This document shows, one piece after another, positions 2,316 through 56,033 of a stretch of DNA of 64,000 nt. A model generated the notes under the pieces. That model did no database searches and had not been told where the DNA came from. It worked only from the letters and a program-made list of their open reading frames with translations. Numbering within the stretch: position 1 is the first letter of the stretch; the number at the start of each line of letters is the position of its first letter. Source of the DNA: a virus. The translations under genes were made by a program, and so were the position numbers. The stretch covers positions 1 through 64,000 of IMG/VR virus record IMGVR_UViG_3300022723_000177; one strand, 5' to 3'.

Positions 2316-2717
2316 ATGACCAAAGGCTTCAATCACTACGCCCGCGCGCTGGATGACCCTGCCGCGAATTCCTACGACATCATCACCCCGGCCGAGAGCG
2401 AGCTGCTGGTGGTCACGCACATCCGCTACACCTGCATTGCGACCGCCACGGTAGGGACTCGCACAGGCCGCATCCGCCTGACAGATCCGAACCCCGGGCC
2501 GACCACAGCCCTGGTGGTGGACCTGCAGGCCCCGAATGTCGCGGCGAGCGCGAACACCCGGATCAGCTTCGGCGTTGGGATGCCAGACGACGCGGGGGTG
2601 TCCGTACCCATCGCGCCCATCGAGGTCGCCCCAGGGTGGACGCTGTTCATCGGGAACACGGGCCTGATCGACGCCGACGATCGCGTCTACGTGGGGGTGT
2701 ACGGCTACACGATGTAG
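2316..2717 (+). CDS. Hypothetical protein (133 aa)
   Basis: Good RBS (caggagatcgccATG). No recognisable domain. Confidence 0.55.
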   Translation: MTKGFNHYARALDDPAANSYDIITPAESELLVVTHIRYTCIATATVGTRTGRIRLTDPNPGPTTALVVDLQAPNVAASANTRISFGVGMPDDAGVSVPIAPIEVAPGWTLFIGNTGLIDADDRVYVGVYGYTM

Positions 2718-2893
2718 TGCGTCACCTTTCCTGCGCGTCGGTCCACTCACGCCCAGCAGCTCCAAGCAGCGGCCCCGCAGGGATGGTTGCTCCCACCAAC
2801 CTCTCACCCCCCAGAGCCCTGCGGGGCCCATTTTGGCCTCAAGTTCCGGTGCGGACGGTCGATACGCATGAAGAGACTGACGGAGGACTCATC

Positions 2894-3475
2894 ATGAAGG
2901 TCGCGGTCTACGCGCGCGTGTCGAAGGCAGACGGCTCCCAGACCGTCGAGAATCAGCTCGGGCCCCTACGGGCGTACCTGGGCTCCAGGGGCGACGACGT
3001 CGCCGCGGAGTTCGTGGAACACGCCTCGGGAGCCGACGAGAACCGCAGCGAGCTCGGCGCGCTCCTCGAAAGGCTCGACGAGTTCGACGCGATCGCGATC
3101 GTGAAGCTCGACCGGCTCGCCCGCAGCGTCCACCACCTCACCTCTCTGGCCCGCGAGCTCGAGAGCCGTGGCGTCGACCTGATCGTGAAGGATCAGGGCA
3201 TCGATACCAGCACACCGGCCGGGAAACTGATGTTCCACGTCCTCGGCGCGGTCGCGGAGTTCGAGCGCGACCTGATCGTCGAGCGCACCAAGGCCGGCCT
3301 GGCCCGCGCCCGACGGGAAGGCAAGCAGGTCGGCCGCCCGCGCCTCCAGATCGACCTCGACCAGGCCCGCGCGGTGCTCCTGCGCGAGGGCAGCTACGCG
3401 AAGGCAGCGCGTGAGCTCGGGGTCCCCGCGACCACGCTCCGGCGCCACCTCCGCGAGGAAGGGGCTTCAGCGTGA
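2894..3475 (+). CDS. Small serine recombinase (resolvase/invertase family)
   Basis: MKVAVYARVSKADGSQ N-terminus with the catalytic Ser motif YxRVSxxxQ. C-terminal HTH (AKAARELGVPATTLRRHL). ggagga RBS 6 nt upstream of the ATG at 2894. Confidence 0.85.
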   Translation: MKVAVYARVSKADGSQTVENQLGPLRAYLGSRGDDVAAEFVEHASGADENRSELGALLERLDEFDAIAIVKLDRLARSVHHLTSLARELESRGVDLIVKDQGIDTSTPAGKLMFHVLGAVAEFERDLIVERTKAGLARARREGKQVGRPRLQIDLDQARAVLLREGSYAKAARELGVPATTLRRHLREEGASA

Positions 3476-29832: not shown

Positions 29833-30081
29833 GTGCCCGAGCAGACGACCGACCAGAAGATTGACCGGATGCTAGAGACGATCGCCCGGATCGACGAACG
29901 CACCAAGAACATCGCAGAGAACTCCAAGGAGAGACTCGCGGCCGCGCACGCGCGGATGGACGGCATCAGCGAGGACGTGCGCGAAGTACGCCGGGCGAGC
30001 GTCAAAGCCGGAACCGCGACCGGCGGAGGCACAGCCGCCATTCTCGCCCTGATCCAGTATCTGTTCCGGGGTGACCTGTGA
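29833..30081 (+). CDS. Holin-like small membrane protein (putative)
   Basis: 82 aa with a charged N-terminus and a single C-terminal hydrophobic segment (GTATGGGTAAILALIQYLF). It sits immediately upstream of the endolysin and overlaps its start. Confidence 0.45.
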   Translation: MPEQTTDQKIDRMLETIARIDERTKNIAENSKERLAAAHARMDGISEDVREVRRASVKAGTATGGGTAAILALIQYLFRGDL

Positions 30082-30617
30082 GCCACAGCTTCGCATTCCA
30101 CGCGGCGCTCGACTTCTCCCTGAAGTGGGAGGGCGGCTACGTGAATCACCCGAACGATCCGGGCGGCGAGACCAAGTACGGAATCTCCAAGCGCGCCCAT
30201 CCCGACGTCGACATCGCCGCGCTCACGAAGCAGCAGGCGGCCGACATCTACCACAAGAAGTACTGGACGAAGATCCGCGGCGACGAGCTCCCTCGAGGCG
30301 TTTCCATGGCGGTCTTCGACTACGCGATCCACGGCGGTGTGTCGCGCGCCATCCGAGGTCTCCAGCGGGCCGTCGGGGGCGTCGCGGTCGATGGGCAGCT
30401 CGGGCCCATCACGCTGGGGGCCGCCCGGCAGGCCGTACACGACCTAGGCAACGCGGAGCTTGCGTACCGGGTCGTCGACCGCCGGGTGGCCCACCTCGCC
30501 GGCCTCGTGCGCCGCGCACCCGAGCGCTACGGCGTGTTCCTGCACGGCTGGCTTCGCCGCACCCACGATCTCGTGCGCGAGCTCGCCAGCACCCCTGAAT
30601 TCAACACGGGGACCTAA
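30078..30617 (+). CDS. Endolysin: glycoside hydrolase family 108 lysozyme with C-terminal peptidoglycan-binding domain
   Basis: FSLKWEGGYVNHPNDPGGETKYGI is the GH108 N-terminal signature. The C-terminal region resembles PG_binding_3. Confidence 0.85.
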   Translation: MSHSFAFHAALDFSLKWEGGYVNHPNDPGGETKYGISKRAHPDVDIAALTKQQAADIYHKKYWTKIRGDELPRGVSMAVFDYAIHGGVSRAIRGLQRAVGGVAVDGQLGPITLGAARQAVHDLGNAELAYRVVDRRVAHLAGLVRRAPERYGVFLHGWLRRTHDLVRELASTPEFNTGT

Positions 30618-30621
30618 GAGG

Positions 30622-31524
30622 ATGCACGCCCTTGTACTCAGCGGCGGGGGAGCGCTGGGTGCCTGGAGCGCCGGCGCGGCCTCCGAGATCGTCCGCTTCT
30701 TCGCCACCACCCACGAACCGATCGCGCTCATCTCCGGGACCTCCGTCGGCGCGGCCAACGCGGCGAAGCTGGTCCAGGACGGGCCCGACCCGCTACTCGA
30801 GCTCTGGCGCAACGTCACCCGCAGGGACGTCTACGTGCGAGGTGCCGCGGGCCCACTGACCTCGGCCTACCGGCTCCTGCGGGGGCGCCCTCTCTACGAC
30901 ACCCGGCCCCTCGCCGCACTGCTCGGTCGCGAGCTCAGCGCGGCCAAGATCGCGGCCTCTCGCTGTGAGCTTCGCGTCCACGCAGCCGATCTAGGCTCCA
31001 GGGCTCTGGTGACCTGGACCGGGCGCTCTCCGGGCCTCCTGGAGGCAATCCGCGGATCCATGGCGATCCCTGGGTTGTTCCCGCCGGTGAGGGTGGGCGG
31101 CCTGGCCCTGGTCGACGGTGGGGTCGTGGCCAACGCCCCGATCGGTCCGGCGATCCGCGCGGGGGCGACGCGCGTGACAGTCCTGCACCCGGACAACGAG
31201 GTGGTGGTGCCCCCGAGGGAGGCCGAGGAGCTGCTGCGGCCGAAGAGCGTCACGCCGGCCTGGCTGTGGGATCGCTCGGCACTTCGCACTTTGAAGCGCT
31301 CGCTCGAGATCATGTTGACCGGCCACATGGAGCGGGACATCCGGATGACGCGCATGGCGAATCAGCTCGACAGCTACCGGACGGTGCGGCTCGACGTGAT
31401 CTCGCCCCCGACCGCACTCGACCCAGACGGCGGAGCACTACTGGACTTCCGGCGCGAGGTTCTCGACGCCCTGCTCGAGCGCGGGATCCGTGACGGCCGG
31501 CGATGGATCCGGAGGCGCGCCTAG
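30622..31524 (+). CDS. Patatin-like phospholipase
   Basis: LVLSGGGALGAWSAG (oxyanion hole), GTSVG (GxSxG nucleophile) and a later DGG (catalytic Asp). Start at the internal ATG at 30622, with a GAGG-type RBS upstream and a 1-nt overlap with the endolysin stop. Confidence 0.8.
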   Translation: MHALVLSGGGALGAWSAGAASEIVRFFATTHEPIALISGTSVGAANAAKLVQDGPDPLLELWRNVTRRDVYVRGAAGPLTSAYRLLRGRPLYDTRPLAALLGRELSAAKIAASRCELRVHAADLGSRALVTWTGRSPGLLEAIRGSMAIPGLFPPVRVGGLALVDGGVVANAPIGPAIRAGATRVTVLHPDNEVVVPPREAEELLRPKSVTPAWLWDRSALRTLKRSLEIMLTGHMERDIRMTRMANQLDSYRTVRLDVISPPTALDPDGGALLDFRREVLDALLERGIRDGRRWIRRRA

Positions 31525-32516: not shown

Positions 32517-33038
32517 TCAGAAGATGCTCCGGCCCGCTTCTGCGAAGCAGGGGCCGACCGTGTCGAGATCCGTGCCGAACTCACCCGTGCCGGTGGTACA
32601 CTGCCCGCGTCCGGGGGTGAAGTTGCCCGACGCGTCCGTACCGAAGTAGCCCCACGACTGGACGATCCCGTCCCCATCGATGTCGGCCTGGGCGTCGATG
32701 GTGAACTGCTGTCCGACCACCGCGACGGCGTAGTTGAAGTACACGTTGCCCGTAGGCGCCCAACCGATCCTGTCGAAATCGACGCTGGGGGTCCACGGCT
32801 GCTTCTCCGAAGCGAGCGCGGTAGTGGGGTTCACCGCAGCCGCGACGTAGCGGCCGAACTCCGCCTCGTACGAGACCTCGGCCGTCCGGATCGCCGCGAT
32901 GTTCACCTTGCCTTCGGTGCTCTTCGCGGCCTTCTGGAACTTCAGAAAGTTCGGGATGGCGATGCTCGCCAGGATGCCCACGATTGCGACGCACACCATG
33001 AGCTCGATCAGAGTGAAACCGTTCTGTCGACGTACCAT
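32517..33038 (-). CDS. pilA: Type IV pilin (PilA-like major pilin with class III prepilin signal)
   Basis: MVRRQNG|FTLIELMVCVAIVGILASIAIPNFLKFQ gives the prepilin peptidase site G|F, Glu+5 and a hydrophobic alpha-1 helix, closely matching the Myxococcus xanthus PilA N-terminus. GGAGGA RBS 7 nt upstream of the ATG at 33038. C-terminal Cys pair. Confidence 0.85.
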   Translation of the reverse strand: MVRRQNGFTLIELMVCVAIVGILASIAIPNFLKFQKAAKSTEGKVNIAAIRTAEVSYEAEFGRYVAAAVNPTTALASEKQPWTPSVDFDRIGWAPTGNVYFNYAVAVVGQQFTIDAQADIDGDGIVQSWGYFGTDASGNFTPGRGQCTTGTGEFGTDLDTVGPCFAEAGRSIF

Positions 33039-33077
33039 TTTCGATCCTCCGTCTTCCGTCAATGTAGCCGTGTTCGG

Positions 33078-33898: not shown

Positions 33899-34141
33899 TT
33901 ACCTCCTGCAGACCTTGGCCGGCCGGAAAGACCTGATGGGCCCCTTCGGCGGGATCACCTTGACGATCGGTCCGTCCTTGTCTTCGGTGATCATGAAGAC
34001 CTTACCCACGAAGCCCGGGATGATGAACCCCCTGGACTGTCGCGGAGGGACGTGAACCTCGTCGCCATCCACCACTGTAGCACCGTCACCCACTTCTACG
34101 CTCTCGAGGCGCCGCGGCACGAACTCAGGCTCCGGAGAAAC
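33899..34141 (-). CDS. Hypothetical protein
   Basis: 3' part of ORF 33899..34249. Start placed at the internal GTG (34141 or 34120) to avoid the upstream gene's stop at 34125. Confidence 0.35.
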   Translation of the reverse strand, partial: VSPEPEFVPRRLESVEVGDGATVVDGDEVHVPPRQSRGFIIPGFVGKVFMITEDKDGPIVKVIPPKGPIRSFRPAKVCRR

Positions 34142-34550
34142 TGCTTCCTTCTTCGCCTCCTCCCGCTCCGGACGGCGGGCCCGCGCCTTGCGCTCCTTGC
34201 TCTTCCCGGGCGGCTTGCGCCGCGCCTTCTTCGAACCTCTTGCGGCCACTGTGTCCCCCTTTCAAGGATACGTTTCGGTGCGCGGCTTCAAAAACCTGAG
34301 AGATCTTTTCGTCGCCATCCAAGAAAAGTCTCTCCCGCTTCTCGCGCTGGATCTTCTCGTGGATCTCGACCGGGGTCGCCGCGAACGCGAACATGGTTCC
34401 GTATGGAGTGTAGAGATCCCATCCCGCGAGACTCCCGCCCGAGTAGATCGGCACCACCATGAACCTGTCCTCGAGCGTGACCGCGTTTGGTACCAGCGGC
34501 GGCCACTCCGCCTCCGCCAGCAGCTGCTCGAGACGCTCGTCGGGAGTCAT
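34125..34550 (-). CDS. Hypothetical protein
   Basis: MTPDERLEQLLAEAEW...; ATG at 34550 abuts the radical-SAM gene stop. Confidence 0.45.
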   Translation of the reverse strand: MTPDERLEQLLAEAEWPPLVPNAVTLEDRFMVVPIYSGGSLAGWDLYTPYGTMFAFAATPVEIHEKIQREKRERLFLDGDEKISQVFEAAHRNVSLKGGHSGRKRFEEGAAQAAREEQGAQGAGPPSGAGGGEEGSSFSGA

Positions 34551-35479
34551 GACACGAACATCCCACACGATGCGGCCACGTCTTCACCGACACGCTCGAT
34601 CACTTTGATCTTCGGCTTGTATCCAGCGAACATATGGAGCTCGCGCTCGATGGTCTGCCCGTAGTGTGTGCGTGCCACCCATGAGGACTCTTCGCTGTGC
34701 CCCTCGGCCGGCGGGTTATACCTGACGAAGGTGAAGTCAGCGCGGAGCCCCGCCTCGCGGACCGCTTTCGCGACGGCGACTGCGTCCGTCAGCGAATCGT
34801 TCTCGCCGCGGATCAGCGCGTAGTGGATCCGCACGATCTTCTTCGAGTGCTGCTGCCACTCCGCCAGGAGATCGAGCGCCATTGACGGATCCATCGCGCG
34901 CGGAAGCCAACGCCTTCGGAAGTCGGGGTCCACAGAGTAGAGTGAGTAGTAGATCTCCGGCTGCACGAACGGGAACATCTGCGGAAGCGTGATGTCCTCG
35001 AGCCCGAGCGCCTGGTCCTCGCGCTTCTTCGGCATGATCGTCGACACCAGGAACCGCGGCATCAGTCCGAGACCGCGGCCGGCGTCGTAGAGACCCTTGA
35101 AGATGTCCTGGCTCTTCTCGCGGAACACTTGGCTGTCGAGCGGCTCGCCGCGGGCCATGAAGTTGTAGTGGACCACGCGCGCACGAATGCCCCCGTCTAG
35201 GGCGCGGTCGCGCTCGATCGGGTCGAACACGTCGTAGAGCACGGCGCGTGCCTGCTCGAGGATCCGCGTGACCTCCAGATCCCGGTACCTGGTCTGCCCG
35301 GTCTGGGTCAGGTGACACATGCGGCAGGCCTGGGCGCAGCCCGTCTGAGTCGAGAGGTAGCAGGCGACGTAGTCGTCGTGGCGTCTGACGTAGCGAGCCT
35401 CGATCTTCCCGAGTGCCCTCTCCCACACCAGGTTCACGCTGTCATCAATCTCGCTGTCTTGCCGGATGTAGCCGCTCAT
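34547..35479 (-). CDS. Radical SAM enzyme, RlmN/Cfr-like (putative RNA C-methylating enzyme)
   Basis: ACYLSTQTGCAQACRMCH carries the CxxxCxxC 4Fe-4S/SAM motif in the RlmN/Cfr context (SSQxGCxxxCxFC). C-terminal ASCGMF resembles the conserved RlmN second-cysteine AACGQL motif. 310 aa, shorter than cellular RlmN. Confidence 0.7.
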   Translation of the reverse strand: MSGYIRQDSEIDDSVNLVWERALGKIEARYVRRHDDYVACYLSTQTGCAQACRMCHLTQTGQTRYRDLEVTRILEQARAVLYDVFDPIERDRALDGGIRARVVHYNFMARGEPLDSQVFREKSQDIFKGLYDAGRGLGLMPRFLVSTIMPKKREDQALGLEDITLPQMFPFVQPEIYYSLYSVDPDFRRRWLPRAMDPSMALDLLAEWQQHSKKIVRIHYALIRGENDSLTDAVAVAKAVREAGLRADFTFVRYNPPAEGHSEESSWVARTHYGQTIERELHMFAGYKPKIKVIERVGEDVAASCGMFVS

Positions 35480-35664
35480 GACGCGCGGCCCTTCAGCCAG
35501 CGCACGACGTGCGGCGAGAGGTCGAGCCCCGCGGCCTCGTAGTGGTCGAGGACTTCCTGCGCCGTGACTTGGCCGGTCTTCACGAGCTGGCGGATGCCCA
35601 TGCTCTTCGCGTGGCGGTGTGAGAGCAGCTTCACCACTTCTTTCTGTCCGCGCTCTTTCGTCAT
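35476..35664 (-). CDS. Small hypothetical HTH-like protein (62 aa)
   Basis: ATGA-coupled to the downstream gene. Confidence 0.45.
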   Translation of the reverse strand: MTKERGQKEVVKLLSHRHAKSMGIRQLVKTGQVTAQEVLDHYEAAGLDLSPHVVRWLKGRAS

Positions 35665-37198: not shown

Positions 37199-37392
37199 CG
37201 CTCGAGAGTCGGGGCCATCGGGGCTCCGTGCGTCTGAGACCTGGACTCGAGCAAAAGCGTTCGCTGCTCACGGCCTTCGAGGTCCCGCGCATCCTCGGGG
37301 CGTACTGGGAAGCACGCGTCATACCGGAGCATGTCGAACGGGAAGTCACCCCTGCCGCTGACGGTAAATCGCACGATCTTCTTAGAAGCCAT
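37159..37392 (-). CDS. Hypothetical protein (77 aa)
   Basis: AAGGAG RBS on the minus strand 8 nt upstream of the ATG at 37392. Confidence 0.5.
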   Translation of the reverse strand: MASKKIVRFTVSGRGDFPFDMLRYDACFPVRPEDARDLEGREQRTLLLESRSQTHGAPMAPTLERWRSFGWVVELGT

Positions 37393-37942
37393 CTTGAGTC
37401 TCCTTCTTCGGGATCAGCGGGTGAAGCAGCACCGGCGCGTAGCCGATCGCCTCGGGACACACGTTCACGTAGCGCTTGTCAGGGAGCTTGTGGTAGTCGA
37501 TGCCACCGTATTCCCCCGTGACCCTCCAGGACGCTGAGATCGTCTTGCTGTGTACGTGCCCGTGGACGTTGATGCGCCCGCGGAGCTCGTCAGGATGGAT
37601 CGGCGCGTGCGAGAGCCACGCCTTCTGACCCTTCTTGCGTTTGTAGTAGACGAGCCCGAACACCTCTTCGAAGACCTTGAGATACTCCCAGGTCGGAAGG
37701 TGGTCGTGGTTCCCGCGCACCAGGAACTTCGTGCCGGGCAGCGAGCCGAGCTTCACGAGCGCCTCGCTAGAGAACGCCGAGTCCCCCAGGACCCAGACCT
37801 TGTCGCGCGGGTTCACCACCGAGCACCAGCCATCCATGAGGCACTGCTCGTGTTCCTCCATGGTCTCGAACGGGCGAAACTCCGTGATACGCTTGTGGCC
37901 GAAGTGGAGGTCGCTGATGGCCCACGTGTTGATCGGTTTCAT
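37382..37942 (-). CDS. Calcineurin-like metallophosphoesterase (Ser/Thr phosphatase family)
   Basis: ISDLHFGH, GNHD and GHVH motifs. ATG at 37942 with GGGAGGGGG upstream. Confidence 0.8.
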   Translation of the reverse strand: MKPINTWAISDLHFGHKRITEFRPFETMEEHEQCLMDGWCSVVNPRDKVWVLGDSAFSSEALVKLGSLPGTKFLVRGNHDHLPTWEYLKVFEEVFGLVYYKRKKGQKAWLSHAPIHPDELRGRINVHGHVHSKTISASWRVTGEYGGIDYHKLPDKRYVNVCPEAIGYAPVLLHPLIPKKETQDGF

Positions 37943-38238
37943 TCCCCCTCCCAAGCCTTCACCATCCGGCGCACGAACGAAAGCTCAGCGCCGGGCTGGG
38001 GCACTGCCGGGCCCGGGCGTACGCACCGCCGGCAGGTCTCCGGGTCGTTTCGGTCTTTGGTGTCTTCGCCGAACGCGGCACCCACAGCCTCTCCTAGCGC
38101 CTCGAGGTCGTCGAGCATTTTCGCGGCGCCATCACGCTCGCGCCCGCATACCTCGTCGACGGAGATCCGGGCGTCGAGGGCGTCGTAGGCACTGATCGCG
38201 GCGCGAGTCCGTGCGAGATCCGGGAGCTCGCGGCTCAT
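37939..38238 (-). CDS. Hypothetical protein (99 aa)
   Basis: ATGA-coupled to the downstream gene. Confidence 0.45.
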   Translation of the reverse strand: MSRELPDLARTRAAISAYDALDARISVDEVCGRERDGAAKMLDDLEALGEAVGAAFGEDTKDRNDPETCRRCVRPGPAVPQPGAELSFVRRMVKAWEGE

Positions 38239-38504: not shown

Positions 38505-38599
38505 CTGTTTCTCTCTTCAAAACTACGTATCGGTGAGTGCGCCGGAACCTTTAGGCGGTGTTGCGAAAATCTCACGGCGGACGAACTTTGTCAATCATG

Positions 38600-38614
38600 G
38601 ACGCAAATTGCGTC
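38600..38614. promoter_or_regulatory. Palindrome gacgcaa-a-ttgcgtc in the divergent promoter region
   Basis: Exact inverted repeat. A TTGACA hexamer (read on the minus strand) lies at about 38586-38591. Confidence 0.4.
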
Positions 38615-38675
38615 ACCTATTCCGCTCCAGATGTACTCACCCCCGAGGCGCCTCAGCCAGGCGCTCGTCGCGGCG

Positions 38676-38705
38676 TTGCTATTTTGGCACGAGGGTTGCT
38701 ATATC
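38676..38705 (+). promoter_or_regulatory. Sigma-70-like promoter candidate (TTGCTA - 18 nt - TATATC) for the rightward replication operon
   Basis: Hexamers read directly, about 50 bp upstream of the ATG at 38753. Confidence 0.35.
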
Positions 38706-38752
38706 GCCTGGCACAACAACACGGTCCACGGACCACGAAAGGGGTTTCGAAA

Positions 38753-39784
38753 ATGGCATTCTCTCCCTACATGAACGGCATGAGCGCAGAGCAGATCCGC
38801 AGCGGCATCCAGAGCATGGATCCGGGACGCCGCTCGTCGCTGATCTCCCGCGCCTTCCCCGGCACTCCGCTGCCGAAGGGCCTGACGGTCGCCGAGGCCC
38901 TGCACGAGGCCGGTGCGAACTTCAACGTCACGATGGCTCCTCAGCACACGAAGAATCCGGTGACGGGTGAGTGGCAGGAGAGTCGCAAGAGCGTCGGCCT
39001 GCTGCGGACGGACACGGGCGCCGAGGTCGGCTCGGCCACGGGCTCCTACGGAATCATCCAGTCGGTGGACTGCTTCGCGGCGGCCCAGGCGCTCGTCGAG
39101 CGCGGCACCCTCAGCCTGGACTTCTGCCAGGTAGTCGACGGAGGAGCGAAGGTTCGGCTCGGCGGCCTCATCGGGTCGAGCACAATCTACCAGGCGAGCC
39201 GCCCGGATGACGCGGACATCCTGGCCCACTTCGTGCTCTTCGAGGCGAATCACTCCGGTGCAGGCAAGAGCACGGGTCAGCTCTACACGCTGCGGCTGGC
39301 CTGCTTCAATGGCATGACTTCGAAGGAGCTCGCCGGCCAGTTCGGGATCGCCCACTACGCCAACGGCACGAAGAAGATGCTCGAGGCCTCGGCGGCGCTG
39401 CTGCATGTCCACGAAGCCGCGGTCGAGGAGGCCGCGATCTTCCAGCGCCTCGCGCTTCACGAGCTCTCGCTCACGCGCTTCCGCGAGTTCGCCGTTGACC
39501 TGCTCGACGACACGCGCGGGTTCTGCGACGTGGATGAGGACTCTAAGGCGCGCGTCACGCGTCGGGTGAACGACATCGAGGAGCTCGAGAACTACTTCCT
39601 GAAGGGCGCAGGCAACGCCGGCCGGACTCACTACGACGCGTACAACGCGGTCACGGACTGGCTCACGCCTCGGCGGGAGCGCCTGAAGGATGCGCAGGCC
39701 TTCGCCAAGCGGTTCGAGTCGACGACCAGCGGCAACGCAGCTACTGTCAGGAGCCGCGCGCTCAATCTGCTGAGCCGCTGGTAA
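38753..39784 (+). CDS. Phage/plasmid-related protein (possibly DUF932-like)
   Basis: 343 aa. Start at the internal ATG at 38753. Family assignment is from memory of DUF932 features only. Confidence 0.5.
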   Translation: MAFSPYMNGMSAEQIRSGIQSMDPGRRSSLISRAFPGTPLPKGLTVAEALHEAGANFNVTMAPQHTKNPVTGEWQESRKSVGLLRTDTGAEVGSATGSYGIIQSVDCFAAAQALVERGTLSLDFCQVVDGGAKVRLGGLIGSSTIYQASRPDDADILAHFVLFEANHSGAGKSTGQLYTLRLACFNGMTSKELAGQFGIAHYANGTKKMLEASAALLHVHEAAVEEAAIFQRLALHELSLTRFREFAVDLLDDTRGFCDVDEDSKARVTRRVNDIEELENYFLKGAGNAGRTHYDAYNAVTDWLTPRRERLKDAQAFAKRFESTTSGNAATVRSRALNLLSRW

Positions 39785-45539: not shown

Positions 45540-47732
45540 TTGGCGGCCCGTCTCGCCTCCGGTGGGGCGGGCCGCATTGCTGAAGGACACCAGGTGAATA
45601 GCACCTACCCGACACACGAAGACGTTCTCCGTGTCCTGCACGCCCAGGGCTCGAAGTGGATCACCCTTGAAGTACTCGAGGCACACACGCGGATCGAACG
45701 AGACTGGCTCACAGCGGAAGGGGGCGACGAGACCTACCCCCGTATCGGCTTCAACAACGGTGTCTCCTGGTTCTTCGACAAAGACCGCCGTCCCGACATG
45801 AAGCACGGCTCCGGCAAGCAGAAGACTCACTGCGCTGGGGGCGTGCGCCGCACGCTGCTCGGGGACCTGGAGAAGGACACGCTGATCCTGTTCGAAGGTG
45901 AGCGCGACTGGCTCACGGCGCTGTCGCTCGGGTTCGACAACGCGATCTGCGCAGGCGGGATCCTGAACCTCGACGAGCACCAGTTCCAGCAGCTGGCGCA
46001 GAAAGCCGAGGTCGTGGTGTTCTTCGACAACGATGAGGAGGGGGTGAACGGAGCAAAGATCGTAGCTGCCCGTCTTCAGGACCACGGCTGTCTCGCCGCG
46101 AAGTGGGTCGTGCCGCCGATCGACGGCGACTTCTCCGAGTGGGTCGAGGGCTTCGAGGATGATCCGCGTGGCACTGTGCTGCACCGCATGACGAGCCAGG
46201 CGGAGAGGCTGAAGAAGGCCGACGCGAAGAAGATACTGAACGCCGGGACCAAGGCCAAGAAGAAAGACGACATCGTCGAGCATCCTTCGGATGAGTTCAC
46301 TACCTCGAGCGGCGACCTCGTCACATCCGTCTGGAGGCCGACCGATCCCGAGCACCCTCACCACGTAGACCTCGGAGGCAAGGCGGTGTTCGTGCGCCAC
46401 GACCTGGCCGCGTCCGAGAAGGCCGGGAGCCTGATCGTCGACTACATCAGCCGCTACACCGAGGCCCCAACGGAGACTGATGAGTTCGACGAAGTACCGG
46501 AGATCTACGGAGGTGGTCAGCGCGCGAAGAGCCACGCCCCAGACCGTCCGCCTGTCGTGGTACCTCTTGGAGGCCAGACCGTCAGCGACCGGATCATGGT
46601 ACTGCCGTCCGGGGCTCGCGAGCATGGATCGAGCGAGAAGCTCTGGGATGACGTGGTTGAGCTCATCGAGAAGTACTTCGTCTGTGCCCCGGCATTTGTT
46701 CACGCCATGGCTGCTTACACGTTTCTGACCTACCGCTATCGCGATGCGCGCTTCGAGGTGATCCCGTACCTCAGGGTGATCGGCCAGGCGGGAAGCGGAA
46801 AGACTCGATTCGCCCGCATCATGAAGGAGCTCTGCTTTCGCAGCCTGTTCGTCACGGGTATGCGTTCGCACCACATCTACCGAATCATCACCGGTTTCAA
46901 CGCCGGGGCCACGCTCGTGTTCGAGGAGTTCGACATGGGGACGCGCGGCGAAGAAAAGATGGAGTGGACCCGTATCCTCAACGCCGGGAACCAGTACGGC
47001 GTGAAGATCCCGCGGATGGGCGGCAAGAACTTCAGCGACGTCGAGTACTTCGACATCTTCGGTCCGAAGGTGATCTCGATGCACGAGGAGTTCGATGACG
47101 AGGGCCTGGCGCGTCGCTGCTTCGGAGTCGTGCTCGGGAAGATGGAGGTTCCCAAAGAGAAGTACTTCGCCGCTCTGCCGAACATCTTCTACCAGGAGAC
47201 GGCGATCCTCCGCGAGCGTTTGCTCGGGTGGCGATTCGCCAAGCGTGGGTTGCCTACGCGCACGCTCGGTGAAGAGCTCCAAGCTGGGATCAAGGGCGAG
47301 GTCTGGCAGACGGTGTTCCCGATGCTGGCCATGGTCCCCGCGGCTCGCCCCGAGGCGACAGCCGCGATCCTCGGGCTGGCGCAAAAGAGCCAGGCGCAGA
47401 TGAAGCTGGTGCGCGCCACCTCGCCCGTCGCTCAGGTGCTCGAGTCCACGATCTATGCTCATGACGATGACCGGGGCTGGACCGAGCTCCAGAACGTGCT
47501 CACCGAATTGCAACTGCGGGACCCCAACGCTAGGTGGACCACCCAGAAGGTCAACAAGTGTCTGCGAGAAGCGGGCCTAACCCCGCGCCGCACCATGAAG
47601 AAGATCGGCGAGCACATCTGGGTCGTCGATATTGACGACACCTTTCGTGGCGCCGTGGCCACGTACAAGCTGGAGATCGAGCAGCTCGCTCAAGAGAATG
47701 CGCGGGAGACTGCGCCGCAGGAGATCATGTGA
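45540..47732 (+). CDS. DNA primase (Toprim domain) fused to a P-loop NTPase (D5/VirE-like primase-helicase)
   Basis: Toprim LILFEGERDWLT ... VVVFFDNDEEG (E and DxD). Downstream VIGQAGSGKT Walker A. TTG start at 45540; the start is uncertain. Confidence 0.75.
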   Translation: MAARLASGGAGRIAEGHQVNSTYPTHEDVLRVLHAQGSKWITLEVLEAHTRIERDWLTAEGGDETYPRIGFNNGVSWFFDKDRRPDMKHGSGKQKTHCAGGVRRTLLGDLEKDTLILFEGERDWLTALSLGFDNAICAGGILNLDEHQFQQLAQKAEVVVFFDNDEEGVNGAKIVAARLQDHGCLAAKWVVPPIDGDFSEWVEGFEDDPRGTVLHRMTSQAERLKKADAKKILNAGTKAKKKDDIVEHPSDEFTTSSGDLVTSVWRPTDPEHPHHVDLGGKAVFVRHDLAASEKAGSLIVDYISRYTEAPTETDEFDEVPEIYGGGQRAKSHAPDRPPVVVPLGGQTVSDRIMVLPSGAREHGSSEKLWDDVVELIEKYFVCAPAFVHAMAAYTFLTYRYRDARFEVIPYLRVIGQAGSGKTRFARIMKELCFRSLFVTGMRSHHIYRIITGFNAGATLVFEEFDMGTRGEEKMEWTRILNAGNQYGVKIPRMGGKNFSDVEYFDIFGPKVISMHEEFDDEGLARRCFGVVLGKMEVPKEKYFAALPNIFYQETAILRERLLGWRFAKRGLPTRTLGEELQAGIKGEVWQTVFPMLAMVPAARPEATAAILGLAQKSQAQMKLVRATSPVAQVLESTIYAHDDDRGWTELQNVLTELQLRDPNARWTTQKVNKCLREAGLTPRRTMKKIGEHIWVVDIDDTFRGAVATYKLEIEQLAQENARETAPQEIM

Positions 47733-48718
47733 GCTTCAGGCCCTACATGCATGTGGAGAGGCTTGGCCACCCCGAGGTTGATGGCATCGAGATCGGCACC
47801 GTTCACGTCTTCCCCAAGCTTGACGGCACCAACGCTAGCGTCTGGGTCGAGTACGGCGACGACTCACCAGAGCTCCACGCCGGCTCTAGGCGGCGGCACC
47901 TGACACTCGAGGCGGACAACCACGGGTTTTGTCGGTGGGTCCACGAACAGTCGGCGGATCCGAGCTCACCTCTGCAGAAGCTGGACCAGCGCCATAGTGG
48001 GCGTGACTGGATCCTCTACGGCGAGTGGCTCGTGCCCCACACGATCAAGAAGTACCGCGACGACGCGTGGCGCCAGTTCTATGTGTTCGATGTCTACGAC
48101 CGCCTCTACGATCAGTACATCCCGTTCGAAGAGTATGAGCCTGAGCTCACCTCGGCTGGGCTCAATGTAGTCTACCCTCTCGCGATCGTGACGAACCCCG
48201 ACGACGCTGCGCTTCAGCGCCTGGTCAACCAGAACACCTACCTCATGCTCGACGGGCAGGGCGCCGGCGAGGGCGTGGTGCTCAAGAACTACGACTTTAC
48301 CAACGCGCACGGCCGTCAAACGTGGGCGAAGATCGTTCGCAACGAGTTCAAGGAAGACGCGCGCAAGGCAATGGGTGTCTCCGAGATCGACGGCAAGGAG
48401 CGCATCGAGACCAAGATCGCTCAGACGCTTTGCACTTCGCACTTGATCGACAAGACGCGACTCATGGTAGAGAAGATGGCGTTTGCCCAAAACGTTGATG
48501 GCTACGCCGAGCAGGATCCTGAGGCCTACGAACAGTGGCTCGCCAAGAACCGCGGAACGATCATCCCTCGCCTGCTCCAGACCGTGTTCTACGAGCTCGT
48601 ACGCGAGGAGATCTGGCACATGCTTAAGCTCGAGAAACGGCTGCCCACCATCGACTTCAAGCGTCTCCAGCAGGAGACCACTCTGGCAGTGAAGCGTCAC
48701 TGCTCGGACTTGTTCTGA
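47729..48718 (+). CDS. ATP-dependent polynucleotide ligase, Rnl2-like (RNA ligase or nick-sealing ligase)
   Basis: Motif I FPKLDGTNASVW (KxDGTN, compare T4 Rnl2 KIHGTN). 329 aa, similar to Rnl2 length. Not a classical KxDGxR DNA ligase. Confidence 0.6.
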   Translation: MSFRPYMHVERLGHPEVDGIEIGTVHVFPKLDGTNASVWVEYGDDSPELHAGSRRRHLTLEADNHGFCRWVHEQSADPSSPLQKLDQRHSGRDWILYGEWLVPHTIKKYRDDAWRQFYVFDVYDRLYDQYIPFEEYEPELTSAGLNVVYPLAIVTNPDDAALQRLVNQNTYLMLDGQGAGEGVVLKNYDFTNAHGRQTWAKIVRNEFKEDARKAMGVSEIDGKERIETKIAQTLCTSHLIDKTRLMVEKMAFAQNVDGYAEQDPEAYEQWLAKNRGTIIPRLLQTVFYELVREEIWHMLKLEKRLPTIDFKRLQQETTLAVKRHCSDLF

Positions 48719-50544: not shown

Positions 50545-50963
50545 AGTGGTTTGATTGGGTCTTCGTCTGCATCATCATCGCCGGTTTTCTGGTGTTCTCG
50601 AGCCGCGGGGAGGCGTCTTGTCCTGCCGAGGTAGCTACGAACGTCGCGGCCCGCGCCGTAGGCGTGAACGATTGGGCGTGTGGTATCTGTACCTTGCCGC
50701 TCGGCCCAGGCGAGCTCGAGATCCAGTCGGTCGAGCTCTTCTTCGTCGACACTGGCGAACGCATCGATTGTTTCTCGATCACCAACGACGCCATGATCGT
50801 GGCGGGTTTTTCTCTGCCAACCTCGTCGAAGATCCGGTACATCAAAGCGAAGACCTACAGTGGGGCTAACTGCAGCGGACGGCCCAGCGTGGTGCCTAGC
50901 CCGAACCAGTGTTCCATTCGGCTCGAAGCGCCGTCGCCGCCGATGTTGACCGAGGTTCCCTAA
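50541..50963 (+). CDS. Membrane-anchored or secreted Cys-rich protein
   Basis: MKWFDWVFVCIIIAGFLVFSS N-terminal transmembrane/signal segment. Start at the internal ATG at 50541. Confidence 0.45.
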   Translation: MKWFDWVFVCIIIAGFLVFSSRGEASCPAEVATNVAARAVGVNDWACGICTLPLGPGELEIQSVELFFVDTGERIDCFSITNDAMIVAGFSLPTSSKIRYIKAKTYSGANCSGRPSVVPSPNQCSIRLEAPSPPMLTEVP

Positions 50964-51583
50964 TGGCCATCATCGACCTCGAGGACATCGTACCCAAGCC
51001 TCCGCCGAACTTCGTACCTCCCGACCACCAGGATAGTGAGAAGTGGGTGCGGGACGTGATCGCCTTCCACGAGCACATGCTCCAGAATTCCCCGAGCGAG
51101 CCGACCATCCAAAACGCTGGGGTGCGGAACCTTCGGCTCGACCTCATGGACGAAGAGTACGGCGAGTACCGTGGGGCTCTTGAGGACGACGATCTCGTCG
51201 AAATCGCGGATGCCTGCGTAGACATGATCTACGTCGCGATCGGGACCATGGTCGCGTACGGCATCCGGCCCGAGCCCATCTGGGACGAGGTCCACCAGAC
51301 GAACATGCAGAAAGAGCCGAAGGGCGCCAAACGCAAGGCGACGAAACCCAAGGGCTTCCGCAAGCCCAACGTCGCACGGCTGCTCCGGCTCCAGGGCTTC
51401 CGCTGCCCGATGAGTCACGCCAACACGCGGTGTGAACGTGTCCGCTCCCACCCCGGTGACTGTTTCTCGTGGGCGTGGATCAAGGTCGATGGACCCGCCG
51501 TGAAACGCGGGTTCTGGTTCGGATACCGCGGCTCCCTGCTGCTCGAGCCCGGCGACACCAACATCCCGGAGGACATCCCGTGA
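50963..51583 (+). CDS. MazG-like nucleoside triphosphate pyrophosphohydrolase
   Basis: EEYGEYRGALEDDDLVEIADACVDMIYVAIGTMVAYGIRPEPIWDEVHQTNMQK matches the MazG all-alpha NTP-PPase core (E..E...E..D metal ligands). ATG at 50963. Confidence 0.7.
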   Translation: MAIIDLEDIVPKPPPNFVPPDHQDSEKWVRDVIAFHEHMLQNSPSEPTIQNAGVRNLRLDLMDEEYGEYRGALEDDDLVEIADACVDMIYVAIGTMVAYGIRPEPIWDEVHQTNMQKEPKGAKRKATKPKGFRKPNVARLLRLQGFRCPMSHANTRCERVRSHPGDCFSWAWIKVDGPAVKRGFWFGYRGSLLLEPGDTNIPEDIP

Positions 51584-55087: not shown

Positions 55088-55380
55088 GTTCGCCGCAAGA
55101 GGACTATTGCCCCACGCGTGTCGTTTCCTACCCGCTCATGCTCGGGTATGGGTATCAGACCGCGCTCATCCCGCAGGGCTCCGAGATCCTGCACTTCGCG
55201 GGACACTACGGCTGCCCTATGATCTGGGTCAAGGCAAAAGTGATGGCGGAGAGCGTGGACCTGGGAGTCACGCTTTTCATCTGTCCAGACAACGCCGATC
55301 TACCTGAAGAGAAGCTCGACCACATTGGAACCTCTCACATCAACGGCATCGTGATGCACCTTTTCCGGAGGCCCGAATGA
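55084..55380 (+). CDS. Hypothetical protein (98 aa)
   Basis: Overlap-coupled. Confidence 0.45.
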   Translation: MSSPQEDYCPTRVVSYPLMLGYGYQTALIPQGSEILHFAGHYGCPMIWVKAKVMAESVDLGVTLFICPDNADLPEEKLDHIGTSHINGIVMHLFRRPE

Positions 55381-56033
55381 TCACCTGTGTCTCGGGCTCG
55401 CGCACCGTCAGGGATCGCGAGCTCGTGTATGATCTGCTCGACCGCACTCCCTGGGTGCCTACGCGTGTGAACCACGGGGCCGCAGGAGGGGTCGATCGCC
55501 TCGCACGTTCGTGGGCGCGGCTCAACGGCATCCCCGAGAGCCCCTGGCTCCCGCGCTGGATGGCGAGCGGGGGCGATGCAGGCAAGAGCGTCGACAAGGC
55601 CGCTGGTCTCAAACGCAACGCGCTGATGGTGCGGGCCAGCCAAGCGTTTGTAGCGATCTGGCATATGCCCTCCCGCGGCACCAAGCACGCCATCGGTTGC
55701 GCGAAGCACGGCGGGATCGTTCGCATGGTCTGGCAAAAGGCGCCACAGCGAGATTGGATGTTCCAGCTTTCGCTGCCTTGTCACACCGGCGAGCACTGGG
55801 TCGTAGGAAAGCCGGGCAAGAGCGAAGGACTGAATATCGTCACCGAAGTGTACGAGGAGCACCCCTACTCTCCGAAGGCCTGGGGATGGGACGGTGAGAA
55901 GAAGGTGTTCTTCCGCGTGACCGGCAAGGGCAGCGCCTACGAGAAGCGGATCGAGATCAACCCCGACGCTAGCGCCTGGCTGGCTGCAGACACTCCCCCC
56001 TACAACGAGATCGGAGACCCCAATGGGCGATGA
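55377..56033 (+). CDS. SLOG-fold protein (DUF2493 / DprA-Smf-like Rossmann domain) with C-terminal extension
   Basis: ITCVSGSRTVRD...HGAAGGVDRLARSWARLNGIP...RNALMVRASQAFVAIW...GTKHAIGCAKHGG matches the DUF2493/SLOG pattern. Confidence 0.55.
   Translation: MITCVSGSRTVRDRELVYDLLDRTPWVPTRVNHGAAGGVDRLARSWARLNGIPESPWLPRWMASGGDAGKSVDKAAGLKRNALMVRASQAFVAIWHMPSRGTKHAIGCAKHGGIVRMVWQKAPQRDWMFQLSLPCHTGEHWVVGKPGKSEGLNIVTEVYEEHPYSPKAWGWDGEKKVFFRVTGKGSAYEKRIEINPDASAWLAADTPPYNEIGDPNGR

Follow-up and report, generated by a model that had tools for sequence, protein, structure and literature searches.

Is the radical S-adenosylmethionine (SAM) gene near the middle of the viral record IMGVR_UViG_3300022723_000177 (IMG/VR) a phage copy of the RNA methylases RlmN and Cfr, or does it belong to a lineage with an active site of its own? 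The window analyzed here is the whole 64,000-nucleotide stretch from positions 1 to 64,000 of that record, and the gene lies on its minus strand at 34547..35479. The original prediction, made from the letters alone, had taken it for an RlmN/Cfr-like enzyme that would methylate A2503 of 23S rRNA and A37 of tRNAs. Our results indicate that, in both sequence and fold, no known enzymes are closer to it than RlmN and Cfr, but that it is neither of them. Instead, it belongs to a divergent, intact and widespread class-A-derived radical-SAM lineage that is marked by the loss of a domain and by a fixed replacement of a catalytic Cys by Tyr. The gene and the codons on which this answer turns are given below, where counts out of 148 refer to an alignment of the query and 147 representatives, each from a different cluster at 50% identity, together with Escherichia coli RlmN.

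34547..35479, minus strand: radical-SAM gene, a stand-alone RlmN/Cfr-type catalytic core and member of PHROG 27142 (profile searches, PHROG, AlphaFold2 model, Foldseek and a second gene call)
35315..35338, minus strand: codons of C48-x3-C52-x2-C55, the [4Fe-4S] ligands equivalent to RlmN C125/C129/C132 (invariant in 148/148)
35357..35359, minus strand: codon of Tyr41, which aligns with the Cys that resolves the crosslink (C118 in RlmN, C105 in Cfr; Tyr in 148/148)
35360..35362, minus strand: codon of Cys40, one residue upstream of the C118 column and aligned with RlmN L117 (unconserved)
34565..34567, minus strand: codon of Cys305 in G-x-D-V-x-A-S-C-G-M-F, the counterpart of the methyl-carrier Cys (C355 in RlmN, C338 in Cfr; Cys in 147/148)
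35141..35149, minus strand: codons of G111-E112-P113, the GEP SAM-binding motif equivalent to RlmN G179-E180-P181 and preceded by M108 (RlmN M176; from the alignment)

The open reading frame (ORF) listing of the window gives a 310-aa product with an ATG start. Exactly as predicted, its CxxxCxxC motif (C48, C52 and C55) stands within LSTQTGCAQACRMCH, which covers residues 42-56, and an ASCGMF motif (residues 303-308, with C305 as its Cys) lies close to the C-terminus. The GC content at the three codon positions (0.64/0.41/0.85) shows the same signature as the rest of the window, and when genes were called independently on another assembly of the same phage, the identical 310-aa product was obtained. 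The protein has 1820 database homologues, and its family-profile matches, given below, far exceed chance. Because the query retains 62 of the 63 family positions conserved at 85% or more, with N250T as the sole exception, the gene is, as judged from its sequence, an intact family member under selection.

Profile searches ranked RlmN first. The top NCBIfam match was TIGR00048 (RlmN; E = 2.4e-13), in which query residues 24-307 aligned with model positions 92-341 of 355, and the Cfr models TIGR04432 and NF000424 came next. However, relative to the curated cutoffs the scores were lower by a factor of about 6 (RlmN) to 16 (Cfr), with 49.8 bits against 290 for the RlmN equivalog TIGR00048, and 34.1 against 550 and 34.6 against 530 bits for the two Cfr models, respectively. 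A phmmer comparison with Cfr gave an E value of 6e-4. All 57 aligned family members likewise matched RlmN/Cfr models first and weakly (best E = 3e-21). The Pfam Radical_SAM score of the query (PF04055) was also sub-threshold at 24.5 bits against a gathering cutoff of 29.5; a precomputed PF04055 match is present on many of its close homologues. Thus the profile check suggested with the original prediction put the expected family at the top of the list, while every score stayed under its cutoff.

An AlphaFold2 model built on the family alignment (pLDDT 90.4, pTM 0.90) has a compact fold composed of three beta-prime extension strands, a partial TIM barrel and a flexible C-terminal tail. In a Foldseek search against PDB, its best matches were RlmN structures (3rfa, 5hr7 and 6fz6; E = 7e-14 to 1e-11, TMq 0.63-0.70), as had been anticipated, and Cfr (9p0p) was matched at E = 5.5e-9. 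The next fold class was that of the pyruvate formate-lyase (PFL) activase (E = 5.6e-8, TMq 0.50), and all significant fold matches were radical-SAM enzymes. With its CX3CX2C motif, G111-E112 and this fold, the protein belongs to the radical SAM superfamily. QueE, viperin, the NrdG/PFL activases, MiaB and lipoyl synthase were considered as alternative subfamilies and gave only much weaker sequence or fold matches. The best match is thus not to another radical-SAM subfamily, and the second, C-terminal Cys is in place.

Two catalytic cysteines define the class A radical-SAM methylases, and to our knowledge RlmN and Cfr are the only class A activities known. Most of their catalytic residues are retained in the family. 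In addition to the invariant cluster ligands, the residues equivalent to RlmN E105 (E27; 148/148) and M176 (M108; 146/148) are conserved, and in the GEP motif G, E and P are found in 148, 137 and 113 of the 148 sequences. The methyl-carrier Cys, which the original prediction had recognized in ASCGMF, is equally well preserved, as is the surrounding tail-loop motif G-x-D-[IV]-x-A-[AS]-C-G; in Cfr, N1/N6 of the adenine are read by the backbone of this motif (PMC13001441). The column of the phosphate-contacting Asn of Cfr holds Asn in 139/148, and N250T of the query falls in this column.

In contrast, the other catalytic cysteine is missing. The column of RlmN C118 and Cfr C105, a mechanistic cysteine that the earlier reader did not consider, is Tyr in every sequence of the family. 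This Cys is reported to be "indispensable in resolving the crosslink" (PMC9692996), with its essential role also described elsewhere (PMC13001441). Its loss abolishes methylation in both RlmN and Cfr (PMC9692996, PMC2836569), and the variants C118A (RlmN) and C105A/C105S (Cfr) end up in stable covalent adducts with RNA (PMC9692996, PMC13001441). The register at Y41 is fixed by the ungapped S-x-Q-x-G-C anchor, since no gap occurs up to the first cluster Cys and S43/Q45/G47/C48 correspond to S120/Q122/G124/C125. The same register was obtained from HMMER alignments to RlmN and Cfr chains and from MAFFT. We considered C40 as a shifted substitute for C118 and rejected it: it lies one residue out of register on a beta strand, its column is variable (V50/C39/I29/A18/L5, that is, Cys in only 39/148), and it is never Cys in the cellular clade linked to AbiEii that is described below.

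The family has further invariants of its own relative to RlmN, namely H219 for E278, Y177/Y178 for A231/I232, Y181 for H235, W191 for I245 and R110 for M178. These residues are mostly located at or just past the C-terminal ends of the beta strands in the model, and the active sites of radical-SAM enzymes sit at the C-terminal ends of the barrel strands.

Other arrangements of column 41 occur among more distant sequences. Gene_104 of Klebsiella phage 05F01 (L004:4851-5780), a distant homologue with ~25% identity located between an ADP-ribosylation gene and that of the anaerobic ribonucleotide reductase NrdD, carries Val in place of Tyr41 (the C118 column), followed three residues on by a Cys, which suggests a wider radiation of short RlmN-like phage enzymes with other active-site arrangements. 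In the alignment of the radical-SAM loci, one cellular and one viral sequence have Cys rather than Tyr at column 41. We infer that these are L092 and L165, the most distant pair of loci, with 27-29% identity to the query; they may represent the point at which the Tyr clade and canonical RlmN/Cfr parted.

The N-terminal HhH2 domain is also absent. As stated above, the TIGR00048 alignment begins at position 92 of 355, in agreement with the prediction of a short protein lacking the N-terminal region of RlmN, and the family has a median length of 296 aa compared with 384 for E. coli RlmN. The model opens directly with the beta-prime strands that link the HhH2 domain to the barrel; all three are present, and strands of this extension help to hold the target adenine in Cfr (PMC13001441). 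The HhH2 domain is crucial for rRNA binding (PMC13001441), and its loss argues against recognition of an L-shaped tRNA or rRNA fold in the manner of RlmN/Cfr. Because two defining features, the resolving Cys and the HhH2 domain, are lacking, the query is not an orthologue of RlmN or Cfr and should not be filed as either. Therefore, the likeness to RlmN/Cfr noted at the outset stands as kinship, whereas the assignment as an actual A2503/A37 methylase does not, in view of the scores, the missing HhH2 domain and Tyr41.

The alignment of the query with PHROG 27142 is full-length (E = 8.9e-90, 302.5 bits; residues 4-309 against positions 6-299 of the 300 in the profile). The name given to this PHROG, 'Fe-S-cluster redox domain-containing', echoes an old wording for COG0820, the RlmN COG. 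Among 1.84 billion representatives, the family profile retrieved 430 clusters (50% identity) at E <= 1e-30 and 1352 at E <= 1e-10; the members are uniform in length (~296 aa), with more than 60 positions conserved at 85% or above. In GenBank phages the family occurs in 26 records, 23 of which exceed 200 kb (jumbo phages). The carriers include Pseudomonas phages 201phi2-1, Phabio, Psa21, D6, RVTF4 and Viktualia, Caulobacter phages CcrColossus and CcrPW, and Brevundimonas jumbo phages, with 201phi2-1 gp434 (UniProt B3FJU2) and CcrColossus gp283 as named members. In IMG/VR, 29 of 74 loci are on contigs of at least 200 kb. The query shares 41-45% identity with the Pseudomonas and Caulobacter jumbo-phage proteins and 36-41% with those of Brevundimonas, and its model superposes on that of the 201phi2-1 protein with a TM score of 0.90. 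Its nearest relatives are two phage-like metagenomic sequences (59% identity), after which it is closer to the AbiEii-linked cellular clade (51-53%) than to the bulk of the viral copies (44-46%).

The family is also found on Pseudomonas megaplasmids of ~0.9-1.2 Mb, including pMPPla107 (L168:6974-7855), amid long runs of hypothetical genes. The megaplasmid neighbors examined (pMPPla107 and Miltoncostaea) are hypothetical or unrelated genes. Several other loci or plasmid matches (L039, L074, L089; H28, H30, H31 and H34) are tied to this megaplasmid occurrence. Annotation is inconsistent: PGAP labels the megaplasmid copies 'hypothetical protein', and some phage records read 'rRNA large subunit methyltransferase N', a GenBank label that is unsupported by the evidence. 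We found no paper on this phage family or on 201phi2-1 gp434; in Kaminska 2010, members from viruses and a small third subfamily whose function was unknown are noted, but no detail is given. The 'Ophion' radical-SAM defense system was considered as a possible counterpart and set aside for its different architecture.

Gene neighborhoods differ between phages and cells. Clustering of 8,330 ORFs from 162 loci revealed no neighbor cluster shared between phage lineages, and the genes next to it in 201phi2-1 and CcrColossus show no homology to the flanking ORFs of the window. Only a metallophosphoesterase recurs, loosely, with homologues 2-3 kb upstream in about four viral loci (L139, L155, L159 and L166). 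In cells, by contrast with the solitary phage gene, a fixed neighbor was found. Upstream flank of 2.5 kb or more was available for 61 cellular loci from species-representative bacterial genomes; in these, the radical-SAM gene divergently adjoins a gene for an AbiEii nucleotidyltransferase in 33 (within L016-L092), with a PADLOC AbiEii match of the adjoining protein at E = 5e-37. The intergenic distance is 40-105 bp in four gene-called examples, in which the module spans L005:3524-8897, L006:3281-8993, L007:2746-8900 and L008:5604-8912. AbiEii is followed by a leucine-rich repeat (LRR) protein of ~520-600 aa in 32 of the 33 loci and then by a ~285-aa gene in 19, after which a sulfatase comes in some Myxococcota; the outer flanks vary between loci. 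Each of the 33 positive loci carries the label Myxococcota or Planctomycetota, an older delta-/Proteobacteria name, or that of an unclassified metagenome-assembled genome. The canonical AbiEi antitoxin gene is absent from these loci.

Searches of the LRR and ~285-aa proteins against PDB, Pfam and PADLOC yielded LRR repeats only, and the query matched no PADLOC-DB v2 family at E <= 0.001; PADLOC holds no model for the radical-SAM protein, and no description of the AbiEii-LRR-radical-SAM module was found in the literature or in PADLOC. AbiEii/MenT nucleotidyltransferase toxins modify tRNA acceptor stems (PMC7450476, PMC10435456; for AbiEii, 10.64898/2026.01.19.700257). AbiEii or LRR genes were found in none of the 74 viral loci, and no window ORF at 26.5-43.5 kb clusters with either. 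Two single cases deserve mention here. CcrColossus gp289 (L003:7601-8755), 1.7 kb downstream of the family member, is a CCA-adding tRNA nucleotidyltransferase; its proximity is noteworthy since tRNA 3' ends are where AbiEii/MenT toxins act. On a Polyangiales chromosome (L005:8897-16897), a second small radical-SAM protein (193 aa, Fer4_12) directly follows the family member and is itself followed by an fvm-type conflict system comprising fvmX6, fvmX5, an FtsH-like AAA+/M41 protease, an fvmX3-analog, fvmX7 and bpMoxR.

What might such an enzyme do? The reading we put forward, tentatively and at somewhat less than even chances, is that the gene encodes a stand-alone radical-SAM C-methylase, derived from class A but rewired in its active site, which acts on a purine in a non-canonical nucleic-acid target in the course of phage-host conflict. 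In this proposal a first SAM would methylate Cys305 on the flexible C-terminal tail, and a second SAM would be cleaved at the [4Fe-4S] cluster of C48/C52/C55 to give a 5'-deoxyadenosyl radical. This radical would abstract a hydrogen from methyl-Cys305, and the thiomethylene radical so formed would attack an sp2 purine carbon, with adenine as the most likely base, in a nucleic acid or nucleotide held by the conserved C-terminal loop. Such chemistry can still be proposed because the carrier Cys, the E105 and M176 equivalents and the adenine-reading loop are retained. Resolution of the covalent intermediate would differ from that in RlmN/Cfr because the proton-abstracting Cys is the invariant Tyr41; it would proceed without a second Cys, perhaps with Tyr41 as the base. 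Moreover, the bulkier Tyr41 would probably impose a different substrate pose, since a Tyr reaches several angstroms beyond a Cys, which in Cfr sits ~3 A from the attacked carbon, and hence a target or regiochemistry distinct from those of RlmN/Cfr. As the AbiEii and LRR neighbors in Myxococcota and Planctomycetota suggest, the biological role would be an RNA-directed conflict function, probably on tRNA, and the lone phage gene would fit counter-defense or host takeover.

Several observations weigh against this reading. C105A/C105S Cfr cannot resolve the crosslink (PMC13001441); a Tyr may not be able to do so either, and the chemistry might be another one. A protein or small-molecule substrate would fit the loss of the RNA-docking domain just as well. 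The query itself has Thr in the phosphate-contacting Asn column. In addition, the AbiEii link is confined to two phyla, and neither the window nor any viral locus has it, which makes its bearing on the phage copy indirect. A bolder reading, which we regard as rather unlikely, is that the family represents a natural class-A-type enzyme without a resolving Cys that either uses tyrosine-based resolution, and would then be a new mechanistic subclass that yields a novel modified base or site, or is a self-sacrificing RNA-crosslinking effector. If true, phages would carry a crosslinking effector for takeover or counter-defense, and Myxococcota and Planctomycetota would keep one alongside a tRNA-directed AbiEii toxin.

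The alternatives differ mainly in how they account for the missing Cys and the missing domain. That the substrate is not RNA but a protein, a free nucleotide or DNA is unlikely in our view. The protein could be the AbiEii toxin, in which case the enzyme would act as an enzymatic antitoxin that phages have taken over for anti-defense, or a host factor: the RNA-docking domain is lost, the gene is paired divergently with AbiEii where the canonical AbiEi gene is absent, and the copies in phages are solitary, as is typical of anti-defense genes. AbiE systems are common phage defenses. However, the adenine-holding tail loop and the Asn column are conserved, we know of no class A relative that acts on a protein or a free nucleotide, and most of the phage hosts involved (Pseudomonas, Caulobacter and Brevundimonas) lack the AbiEii-LRR-radical-SAM module. 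In known systems AbiEii/MenT toxins are neutralized by post-translational modification (PMC11375011; 10.64898/2026.01.19.700257), which adds to the case for a protein substrate. Quite unlikely is the original proposal of a genuine RlmN/Cfr-type methylase of A2503 in 23S rRNA and/or A37 in tRNA, which would re-tune translation or protect ribosomes. The proximity to RlmN/Cfr by profile and fold, the conserved methyl-carrier Cys, Glu and Met equivalents and adenine-reading tail loop, the three beta-prime strands and the presence of an RNA ligase and a metallophosphoesterase in the phage all speak for it. But the profile scores are far below the cutoffs (49.8 bits vs 290 for RlmN, 34 vs 530-550 for Cfr), the HhH2 domain that anchors H91/H92 of rRNA and recognizes L-shaped RNA is missing, and an invariant Tyr replaces the Cys whose loss kills methylation (PMC9692996, PMC2836569). 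RlmN is found in most bacterial taxa (PMC2836569), which would make the same activity in a phage redundant, and PGAP does not name the megaplasmid copies as methylases.

The same replacement is the starting point for a natural crosslinker, which would leave an irreversible Cys305-CH2-purine link on RNA and serve as a single-turnover toxin or tag that inactivates host tRNA or pre-ribosomal RNA, shutting off the host in the case of phages and adding another effector to AbiEii in cells. We consider this very unlikely. The carrier Cys is retained where the resolving Cys is lost in 148/148, the gene is linked to a toxin gene in cells, and the trapped adducts of C118A RlmN and C105A/C105S Cfr (PMC9692996, PMC13001441) provide a precedent; in vivo, Cfr C105A causes a reverse transcription stop at A2503 and an enlarged 50S peak, and the affected rRNA is excluded from 70S ribosomes (PMC2836569). 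On the other hand, stoichiometric action would be costly against abundant RNAs, the invariant Tyr with its co-conserved His, Tyr and Trp argues for catalytic replacement rather than mere loss, and no obvious immunity partner is seen in the cellular genomes carrying the gene. Finally, a decaying or non-functional RlmN remnant could explain why the protein is shorter than RlmN, lacks one catalytic Cys and scores under the Pfam cutoff (24.5 vs 29.5 bits), but it is hardly credible: at least 430 clusters at 50% identity have a uniform length of ~296 aa, 62 of 63 conserved positions are kept in the query, the cluster ligands, the SAM motif and the carrier Cys do not vary, and third-position GC is normal and the fold confident. 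These conservation data effectively refute decay.

Compared with RlmN (E. coli YfgB; TIGR00048; 3RFA, 5HR7), the family shares the architecture of beta-prime extension, partial TIM barrel and C-terminal tail, the cluster motif within S-x-Q-x-G-C, the GEP, N-D and Y/W-N-P motifs, the E105 and M176 equivalents and the carrier Cys in A-[AS]-C-G. It differs from this dual-specificity m2A2503/m2A37 methylase in its ~20% identity, the lack of HhH2 and the invariant Tyr for C118, and in that it occurs in phages and conflict-type islands and not as a housekeeping gene. With Cfr (Staphylococcus aureus; 9P0P), which forms m8A2503 and confers multidrug resistance, it has in common the lineage, the fold, the tail-loop motif and the phosphate-contacting Asn column; unlike Cfr, it has no N-terminal domain, has Tyr for C105 and shows no evidence of a link to antibiotic resistance. 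The sole experimental models of a site that keeps the carrier Cys and lacks the proton-abstracting one are the engineered RlmN C118A and Cfr C105A/C105S, but in contrast to these dead-end mutants, the replacement here is a conserved Tyr with co-conserved neighbors, suggesting a working alternative instead of a loss. The cellular members resemble AbiE/MenAT systems in having AbiEii (DUF1814) as their fixed neighbor, and the tRNA targeted by these toxins belongs to the RlmN substrate class. They depart from canonical AbiE in that AbiEi is absent and an LRR protein comes after AbiEii, and the phage window contains neither an AbiEii nor an LRR gene. The window phage also differs from most annotated carriers of PHROG 27142, which are jumbo phages of more than 200 kb, in being siphovirus-like with a genome of ~66 kb.

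The family thus constitutes a third class A clade of hundreds of sequence clusters with Tyr in place of the proton-abstracting Cys and without the RNA-docking domain. It poses a directly testable mechanistic question, namely whether the crosslink is resolved without the second Cys or is itself the product. It is a recurrent and unexplained accessory gene of jumbo phages, including nucleus-forming Pseudomonas phages, and its fixed pairing with an AbiEii/MenT-type gene in two phyla points to a previously undescribed conflict module that is possibly tRNA-centered.

Within the phage, the gene is located in a block transcribed leftward at ~31.7-38.2 kb, in agreement with the leftward block described originally, between the structural and lysis genes and the replication genes. 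The two ORFs that directly flank it are as follows.

35476..35664, minus strand: 62-aa orphan ORF upstream, whose stop overlaps the radical-SAM start (ATGA; read from the DNA)
34125..34550, minus strand: 141-aa orphan ORF downstream, whose ATG overlaps the radical-SAM stop (ATGA; read from the DNA)

Because ATGA overlaps occur on both sides, the three genes appear from the DNA to be a translationally coupled array. Neither flanking ORF has a Pfam, PHROG or PADLOC match, and no homologue of either lies beside the radical-SAM gene in any other locus compared. A promoter and terminator scan of the leftward block gave counts at the level expected by chance.

The window belongs to a tailed phage with terminase, portal, major head protein, tape measure, helicase, primase, RNA ligase and DNA polymerase genes, and a megablast search of window positions 30-40 kb against 50,697 phage records found no near-identical genome. 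The original prediction had placed the radical-SAM gene among other translation-directed genes. This was not borne out: no tRNA genes or Rfam RNAs were detected in the window, and the only candidates are the RNA ligase (PF09414, PHROG 548; 47729-48718, plus strand) and a calcineurin-like metallophosphoesterase of the leftward block (PHROG 547; 37382-37954, minus strand), which could together form an RNA end-healing and sealing pair. The leftward block also carries a type IV pilin-like protein (32517-33062, minus strand) with an N-terminal GFTLIELMV prepilin motif and a match to PHROG 3433 ('pilin'), which is an unusual phage cargo.

The plus-strand lysis genes extend to ~31.5 kb. Reading of the ORF translations alone revealed a GH108-like endolysin motif (EGGYVNHPNDPGGETKYGI) at 30078-30617 (plus strand) and, after this ORF, a patatin-like phospholipase (GGGALG ... 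GTSVG) at ~30620-31524 (plus strand). The two may form a lysis cassette with a lipid-targeting enzyme, and the stretch is GC-rich (0.68). Other accessory genes, all on the plus strand, encode an HNH endonuclease (1574-2275), a DUF932 protein (38558-39784), a MazG-like nucleotide pyrophosphohydrolase (50909-51583), a GTP-binding-domain protein (55377-56033) and a serine recombinase/DNA invertase (2636-3475), the last of which may point to a temperate lifestyle or an invertible segment.

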